Assembly: GCF_003790525.1 (NCBI RefSeq)
Contig: NZ_CP033635.1
Source: Escherichia coli
GTDB taxonomy: Bacteria; Pseudomonadota; Gammaproteobacteria; Enterobacterales; Enterobacteriaceae
Length of the DNA stretch: 64,000 nt
Strand: one strand, 5' to 3'
Below the pieces are notes generated by a model that was not told the DNA's origin, did no database searches, and saw only the letters and a program-made list of their open reading frames with translations. Shown one piece after another: positions 53,574 to 54,091 of this stretch; position 1 is the stretch's first letter, and every line of letters begins with the position of its first letter. Made by a program: the position numbers and the translations under genes.

Positions 53574-53656
53574 TTCATGCGCCGGACACCCCGGTGCAAA
53601 ACGTGTTTTGTGGCGGGGTGTCGGCAGACAAGCCACGTACTGACTGTCACAGCGCG

Positions 53657-53848
53657 TCAGCGTAAGAGCACCGGCAGCAAGGGAATGACAACAATGGTGA
53701 TGACGATGATGAGCAGGTTGATGCCCCTGATGACGTCATATAACCAGACAGGGCACTGTGGCTCTTCCCTGACGATATATAACACAACAAAAAACCAGGT
53801 AAGACTGAACAGGGCCCGGTACGGAAGGGCGGTGAGGAGAAATTCCAT
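53657..53848 (-). CDS. candidate small two-TM membrane protein on the opposite strand
   Basis: 63 aa; ATG preceded by AAGAGGAAA SD on minus strand; sits in the gap between two plus-strand operons. Confidence 0.3.
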   Translation of the reverse strand: MEFLLTALPYRALFSLTWFFVVLYIVREEPQCPVWLYDVIRGINLLIIVITIVVIPLLPVLLR

Positions 53849-54091
53849 GCTGATGTTTCCTCTTTACGGGGGGTCATTAGCGGGAAACTGTAGTGATGAC
53901 CTGTTTCAGTAAACAGAAAAAATCATTAAAGATGGAATAAAATTGCGCCCCGGCGCGGGGATATGTTCCGGCATTCAGCCATGTCCGTTTTCCCTTAAAA
54001 ATTTTCAGTTTTACAAATAGAGTTTATCGCTGACCGGCACACCTGCCTTCTTCATGCTGTACGCACCCACAGATTCTTAACGGAGGTGCGT

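Follow-up and report, generated by a model that had tools for sequence, protein, structure and literature searches.

A small gene for a predicted two-helix membrane protein as lineage-restricted cargo in GI-Hotspot 8 of an Escherichia coli ICE

The gap between two transfer operons

The window analysed here (64,000 nt of Escherichia coli contig NZ_CP033635.1, assembly GCF_003790525.1) carries a chromosomal ICE in which one gap divides two transfer operons of a pKLC102/PAGI-2/ICEclc-type (MPF-G) T4SS. The left operon ends with the genes for TraD and a TIGR03747-family membrane protein, and the right one begins with the gene for a RAQPRD-family protein (Table 1). Between them, on the strand opposite to both, lies a small gene. 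A sequence-only reading of this DNA had proposed a 63-aa ORF at this place, between the traD-associated operon and the next plus-strand operon; the ORF is read directly in the sequence, the TraD/TIGR03747 and RAQPRD flanks agree with the proposed location, and PGAP calls the gene independently. The ORF runs from an ATG at 53848–53846 to a TGA at 53659–53657, and its product, translated from the window, is MEFLLTALPYRALFSLTWFFVVLYIVREEPQCPVWLYDVIRGINLLIIVITIVVIPLLPVLLR. The Shine–Dalgarno sequence, which had been described as good, has its GAGG core at the spacing given in Table 1. In RefSeq the gene is already known, uncharacterised, as hypothetical protein WP_000394957.1 (PGAP annotation of an identical locus in strain GF60; APEC E19035 also has this locus).

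Table 1 Features of the traD–RAQPRD region in the window, with the 177–178-aa gene of related loci
Feature	Position	Strand	Remarks
TraD (TIGR03754)	50678–52831	plus	
TIGR03747-family ICE membrane protein	52749/52812–53573	plus	stop TGA 53571–53573
Long hairpin	53581–53625	plus	~20-bp stem, 8 nt downstream of the TIGR03747 stop; the small gene converges on it
Conserved tail, CAGACAAGCCAC...GCGCGTCAG	53626–53661	plus	left boundary of the cargo hotspot
Small-gene CDS (stop included)	53657–53848	minus	ORF; 63 aa; subtype A of a narrow family
Shine–Dalgarno, AAGAGGAAA	53864–53856	minus	GAGG core 10 nt from ATG
Leader/spacer, 95 nt	53849–53943	minus	conserved upstream of the small gene; motif TCTTTAATGA; candidate −10 TACAGT (53892–53887)
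GC-rich junction (~45 nt)	53944–53989		window-specific; site of the 177-aa gene in fuller loci (alignment)
Block upstream of RAQPRD, TAAAAATTTTCAGTTTTACAAATAGAGTTTATCGCTGA / AAATTTTCAGTTTTACAAATAGAGTTTATCGCTGA ... CATGCTGTACGCACC	53996–54067	plus	right boundary of the hotspot
RAQPRD-family protein	from 54086/54092	plus	then TIGR03758 and TIGR03745 genes
177–178-aa gene (related loci)	L005:2044–2577, L008:2388–2924, L013:2358–2891, L009:2501–3034	minus (L005, L008, L013); plus (L009)	

The product is very hydrophobic (GRAVY 1.37). Two transmembrane helices had been predicted from the sequence, and both approaches used here agree: the Kyte–Doolittle profile has two hydrophobic maxima, and AlphaFold2 (7-sequence alignment) returned a helical hairpin (H2-28 and H34-62; pLDDT 76) in which a conserved short loop, EEP-Q/R-C/Y-P-x-W, joins the two hydrophobic helices. 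Other frames over the same DNA fared differently. The overlapping plus-strand ORF (53577–53912, 111 aa) is interrupted by stops in the diverged loci L002, L003 and L004 and, as the sequence-only reading had suspected, is best read as noise. A second minus-frame ORF (76 aa) is likewise interrupted in relatives and was rejected as a gene.

Conserved non-coding segments frame the gap on both sides. In the hairpin that follows the TIGR03747 gene, seven stem pairs show compensatory double changes among nine sequences from four genera. It has no T-run; relatives in Pantoea, Chimaeribacter and Mixta carry a canonical GC hairpin with a T-run at its place, so it is most simply, and probably, the terminator or 3′ stabiliser of the operon. 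Together with the tail (53581–53661) it could be a terminator, a 3′-UTR RNA, or a hotspot element that serves as a boundary or in recombination. Rfam gave only sub-threshold matches in the region; sX8 was rejected, as it scored 18 bits where the threshold is 50, and its structure contradicts the covarying hairpin. The end of the tail, GCGCGTCAG, contains the stop of the small gene (TCA 53657–53659 on the plus strand), and hairpin and tail are kept in E. coli lineages as well as in Edwardsiella, Erwinia and Rosenbergiella loci that have no small gene. On the other side, the block upstream of the RAQPRD gene is nearly invariant in an alignment of 11 loci from six genera. A scan found no sigma-70 consensus in it, and the block is probably a regulated, activator-dependent promoter of the T4SS operon.

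Relatives of the small gene and loss of its neighbour

Conservation of the frame in related ICEs, the check that the sequence-only reading had named, was found: intact homologues with aligned start codon and Shine–Dalgarno sequence are present in E. coli ICEs (L002, L004/L013, L005, L008 and L009/L011/L014), with ORF DNA 55–76% identical. The 63-aa ORF is a genuine protein-coding gene, as its frame, start, Shine–Dalgarno sequence and conservation in relatives indicate. The homologues fall into three subtypes of 61–74 aa with 23–62% identity. Subtype A, to which the window belongs, includes the proteins of FDAARGOS_1300 (L002; 63 aa, 52% identity to the window), STEC2018-553 and 2013C-3033 (L004 and L013; 61 aa, 62%) and Br_112 (L005; 63 aa, two substitutions); the gap DNA of subtype-A loci in E. 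coli ICEs is ~76% identical. Subtype B (71–74 aa, 35–38% identity to the window) occurs in KE41 (L008), P0014, L011 and L014, and subtype C (62 aa, 23%) in L009 and L014. Subtype C is recognised by its match to the family profile (hhalign probability 91%, E = 1.2e-6) and its unchanged position in the locus. All subtypes have L8, W18, E29, P33, W35, I43 and P56 in common, and an E-x-P/R-x-P-x-W loop between the helices. At position 11 the window allele has R, and every other A and B allele has W. Subtypes can stand in tandem, two in L011 and two in L014 (C and B).

The family was then counted in complete E. coli genomes. An 801-nt probe from the window is matched at ≥99% identity in 34 of 5426, many of them poultry or avian-pathogenic (APEC) isolates. 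Subtype A as a whole is found in 69 of the 5426, at least 29 of which have the identical window allele; subtype B is found in nine genomes and subtype C in seven, and some genomes have two subtype-A copies. The 61-aa allele is intact in about 20 of the listed E. coli genomes; this allele (L013:2066–2251, L004:1766–1951) is not called by PGAP, and the 63-aa alleles are. A 1-nt deletion shifts the frame in at least 7 of the 69 subtype-A genomes (for example, G6/7, L003), and in at least three the copy is partial or disrupted, as in S19-651 (L007), which has an insertion. With about 10 of 69 copies frameshifted or disrupted, the small gene is dispensable. Beyond these genomes, a word-indexed protein search with the 63-aa query gave only five matches, near-identical or frameshift chimeras, and an exhaustive profile search of 1.84 billion cluster representatives gave 11 clusters, mostly fragments of the same E. 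coli family; two long repetitive proteins among the 11 were taken as noise. By these sequence searches, the family is narrow.

The DNA just upstream of the gene is more uniform than the gene itself. In the leader, mean column identity across subtypes A, B and C is 75%, above that of the coding sequence, while the proteins are 23–62% identical. Two blocks are invariant, TC.T.AATGA and CA.TAC.GT, and GGAGAAATTCCATGCTGATGT around the start codon is kept in all subtypes along with purine runs resembling a Shine–Dalgarno sequence. This conservation suggests a putative regulatory signal, the gene's own promoter or another. Scanning for sigma-70 sites gave no canonical promoter upstream of the small gene; by eye, a weak candidate can be read as TTTACT, 15 nt, TACAGT.

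In fuller loci (L005, L008, L013 and L009–L012), a gene of 177–178 aa precedes the small gene on the same strand, with a spacer of ~95 nt. Its product has a hydrophobic helix at the N and C termini, an all-helical middle and the motifs LLA.RWSV and SLHDIY.S.QKK; its AlphaFold2 model is of low confidence (pLDDT 64). The window, L002 and L004 are without this gene, and their junctions are three different ones. An HMM of the 177-aa protein detected 3′ remnants in L002, L003, L004 and L007, and no remnant in the window gap. From the alignment, the GC-rich junction of the window is read as the deletion scar of the 177-aa gene. A GC-rich palindrome, GCGCCCCGGCGCGGGG, lies at 53945–53960 in the window-type locus only, at this presumed deletion junction. 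In L004, GCCCGTATT is repeated five times in tandem (2126–2203) exactly at the deletion junction of the 177-aa gene, and an 80-aa ORF that PGAP calls across the repeat is probably spurious. The pairing of the two genes is not obligate, because each occurs alone: the 177-aa gene without the small gene in Pectobacterium punjabense and Escherichia sp. E3659, where it fills the same slot, and outside any ICE in Serratia fonticola; the small gene without the 177-aa gene in the window, L002, L004 and L014. A toxin–immunity pair or an obligate two-gene module is weakened as an explanation by the solitary 177-aa genes of Pectobacterium, Escherichia sp. E3659 and Serratia.

Cargo of GI-Hotspot 8

A 2025 study (PMC12629846) described the variable region between traD and the RAQPRD gene in PAGI-2/PAGI-3/LESGI-3-type islands as GI-Hotspot 8 and found known defence systems in about 29% of its occurrences. 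The small gene falls within the definition of this hotspot, lying between traD (with TIGR03747) and a RAQPRD-family gene. A scan with the TIGR03747 protein, one genome per species, yielded 13 loci from other genera (Chimaeribacter, Pantoea, Edwardsiella, Erwinia, Rosenbergiella, Mixta, Halomonas, Vreelandella, Herminiimonas and a Burkholderiales MAG), none of which was matched by the small-protein HMM or the 177-aa-protein HMM; the small-protein HMM found only the loci of the homologues described above. Within the same ICE family in E. coli, too, many elements lack the small gene, L006 among them. In the other genera the gap is empty (L018 and L029) or filled with unrelated genes: an Abi_2/AbiD/PD-T4-5-like gene in Erwinia psidii (L023:1634–2671), PADLOC Hp1 and Hp2 genes in Pantoea sp. 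alder81 (L019:4963–7186) and a TetR regulator in Mixta. Some E. coli ICEs have a further gene in the hotspot adjoining the tandem small genes (L014:3387–4337, minus strand), whose 316-aa product has a signal-like sequence at its N terminus and is matched by nothing in Pfam or PADLOC. The small gene is lineage-restricted, optional cargo and not part of the conserved ICE or conjugation core.

The region studied here resembles the published hotspot in its flanks, ICE family and variable content, and the cargo now seen in Enterobacterales includes Abi-like and PADLOC-recognised genes. The published study (PMC12629846), in contrast, deals mainly with Pseudomonas and with known defence systems of large size, CBASS and RM among them, and includes neither the small protein, the 177-aa gene, the conserved hairpin nor the promoter boundaries. 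With the Pantoea and Erwinia cargo, the published Pseudomonas hotspot now extends to plant-associated Enterobacterales.

Selection, rival explanations and a proposed role

In-frame dN/dS of the small gene is below 1 and high. For the window it is 0.79 against L002, 0.62 against L004 and 0.36 against L008, and for L002 against L004 it is 0.24; overall, distant pairs give 0.36–0.45, a sign of purifying selection, and subtype-A alleles 0.6–0.85. Between L005 and L013, which both have the 177-aa gene, the flanking core genes have a dN/dS of 0.08–0.2 (dN 0.06–0.08), the 177-aa gene 0.29 (dN 0.145) and the small gene 0.61 (dN 0.254), a dN about four times that of the flanking core genes. Values that are below 1 but high indicate that the small gene is coding yet either weakly constrained or fast-evolving, and the range of 0.6–0.85 among subtype-A alleles is also expected from relaxed constraint. 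The reading as a small membrane protein is supported with these qualifications: it is lineage-restricted cargo under weak constraint, with broken copies among its relatives, and its 177-aa neighbour has been lost.

Four alternatives bear on what the gap contains and what the gene does. The ORF might be a product of chance and the functional elements of the gap the non-coding hairpin and promoter blocks. In 2000 dinucleotide shuffles of 53574–54091, an ATG ORF of at least 60 aa arose in 57%, so length alone is unremarkable; moreover, some non-coding blocks of the gap are more conserved than the ORF, and comparisons within subtype A lack a third-position excess. An ORF with a Shine–Dalgarno sequence arose in only 6% of the shuffles, however, and one that also had a GRAVY above 1.0 in 0 of 2000. 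Frame, start codon and Shine–Dalgarno sequence survive 45% nucleotide divergence through three subtypes with a common loop motif, the alternative frames break in relatives, and in the distant comparison dN/dS is 0.36 in frame against about 0.7–1.3 in the other five frames, which together make a chance ORF very improbable. Its place between two T4SS operons might instead mark the product as an accessory core subunit of the conjugation machinery, such as a pilus or T4SS assembly factor. Yet 13 of 13 loci in other genera lack the gene, as do many E. coli members of the same ICE family (L006, for one). It is encoded on the strand opposite to the transfer operons, is frequently broken and, unlike the TIGR037xx backbone set, has no NCBIfam match; we consider such a role scarcely credible.

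A small hydrophobic protein encoded where defence and TA cargo is enriched also brings to mind membrane toxins or effectors: the killing or depolarising part of a two-gene Abi/TA module, or a type I toxin, whose controller would be the 177-aa protein or an RNA. Like Hok, TisB, Ldr and Ibs, the small protein comes from a short ORF of very high hydrophobicity, lying in what looks like an intergenic gap of a mobile element, and one variant of the 177-aa protein has weak PADLOC PDC-S03 matches (E = 0.0025). Unlike these typically single-helix toxins, however, it has two helices and a conserved Pro/Trp loop, and its C terminus has no charged tail of the kind usual in holins; no Rfam antisense RNA at gathering score and no promoter-like site on the opposite strand were found; and the PDC-S03 match, with RT_IV, is limited to two near-identical sequences of the seven 177-aa proteins. 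Stable persistence alone, in dozens of genomes that have no controller, would be unlikely for a toxin, and we regard this explanation as improbable. A more serious rival, although still doubtful, is that the small gene needed the 177-aa gene and that the window copy is a decaying remnant, its ORF still intact but without function and turning into a pseudogene. The window has lost the 177-aa gene, the broken copies (the L003 frameshift and the L007 insertion) all lie in loci without that gene, dN/dS among subtype-A alleles is high, and the window allele departs from an otherwise conserved residue (W11R). Against decay, the neighbour has been lost at three junctions (window, L002 and L004) with ORF, Shine–Dalgarno sequence and leader intact each time, at least 29 genomes have the identical intact allele, and dN/dS is equally high between L005 and L013, where the 177-aa gene is present. 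In addition, other genera have the 177-aa gene by itself, so that the pairing is not obligate, and L014 has two small paralogues without it.

Neither the small nor the 177-aa protein gave anything significant in Pfam, NCBIfam, PADLOC, PHROGs or PDB sequences. For the small protein, profiles of the catalogued PADLOC-DB defence proteins gave no match, and its model had no match below E = 4.5 in a viral structure library. Because there is no family match, its function was inferred from context and analogy. Exclusion proteins such as phage T4 Imm, TraS of F, Eex of SXT/R391 and TrbK of RP4 are small membrane-embedded products of mobile elements; they can function on their own, diversify fast into specificity types and are expressed independently of transfer or lytic genes. 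The small protein is likewise element-encoded and predicted to be membrane-embedded. It differs from the described exclusion families in having no sequence or profile similarity to them (Pfam, NCBIfam, PHROG, PDB) and no viral fold match, and in that two subtype-A copies can share one genome, a finding that fits poorly with strict entry exclusion between like elements.

On this analogy we tentatively suggest that the small protein may be an autonomous inner-membrane conflict factor that hinders incoming DNA, by excluding superinfecting phages or the entry of conjugative elements. The window element has deleted the 177-aa gene and kept the small gene with its own Shine–Dalgarno sequence and 95-nt leader; the small gene would be expressed independently of the tightly regulated transfer operons; and its product would sit in the inner membrane of ICE-carrying cells, act by itself, and hinder the entry of incoming phage or conjugative DNA. 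Exclusion fits because the family diversifies fast, forms tandem paralogues and survives without the neighbouring gene, and the Shine–Dalgarno sequence of each copy and the leader conserved across subtypes count in favour of autonomy. A role in exclusion or defence is the likeliest single role, itself uncertain, and a functionless remnant comes next. More speculatively, the small proteins, encoded in the defence hotspot of MPF-G ICEs, might form an unrecognised family of partner-free two-helix exclusion or defence factors in the inner membrane that block the entry of phage or conjugative DNA, with subtypes A, B and C, at times in tandem, representing a minimum of three specificity types. On balance, we lean towards the account as a whole: a real gene for a hairpin protein, carried as accessory cargo in GI-Hotspot 8, whose neighbour was lost and whose product is a membrane factor.

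Small membrane proteins are under-annotated, and the 61-aa allele left uncalled by PGAP is an example. The slot occupied by the small gene belongs to a widespread ICE family known to collect defence cargo. If the gene is only a remnant, the edges of the hotspot are still marked precisely, by the hairpin and tail on the left and the promoter block on the right. Should the gene instead encode an exclusion or defence factor that works autonomously, this would be a minimal system of a single gene, and one that would help to explain which ICEs or phages can enter ICE-carrying APEC and ExPEC (extraintestinal pathogenic) E. coli.
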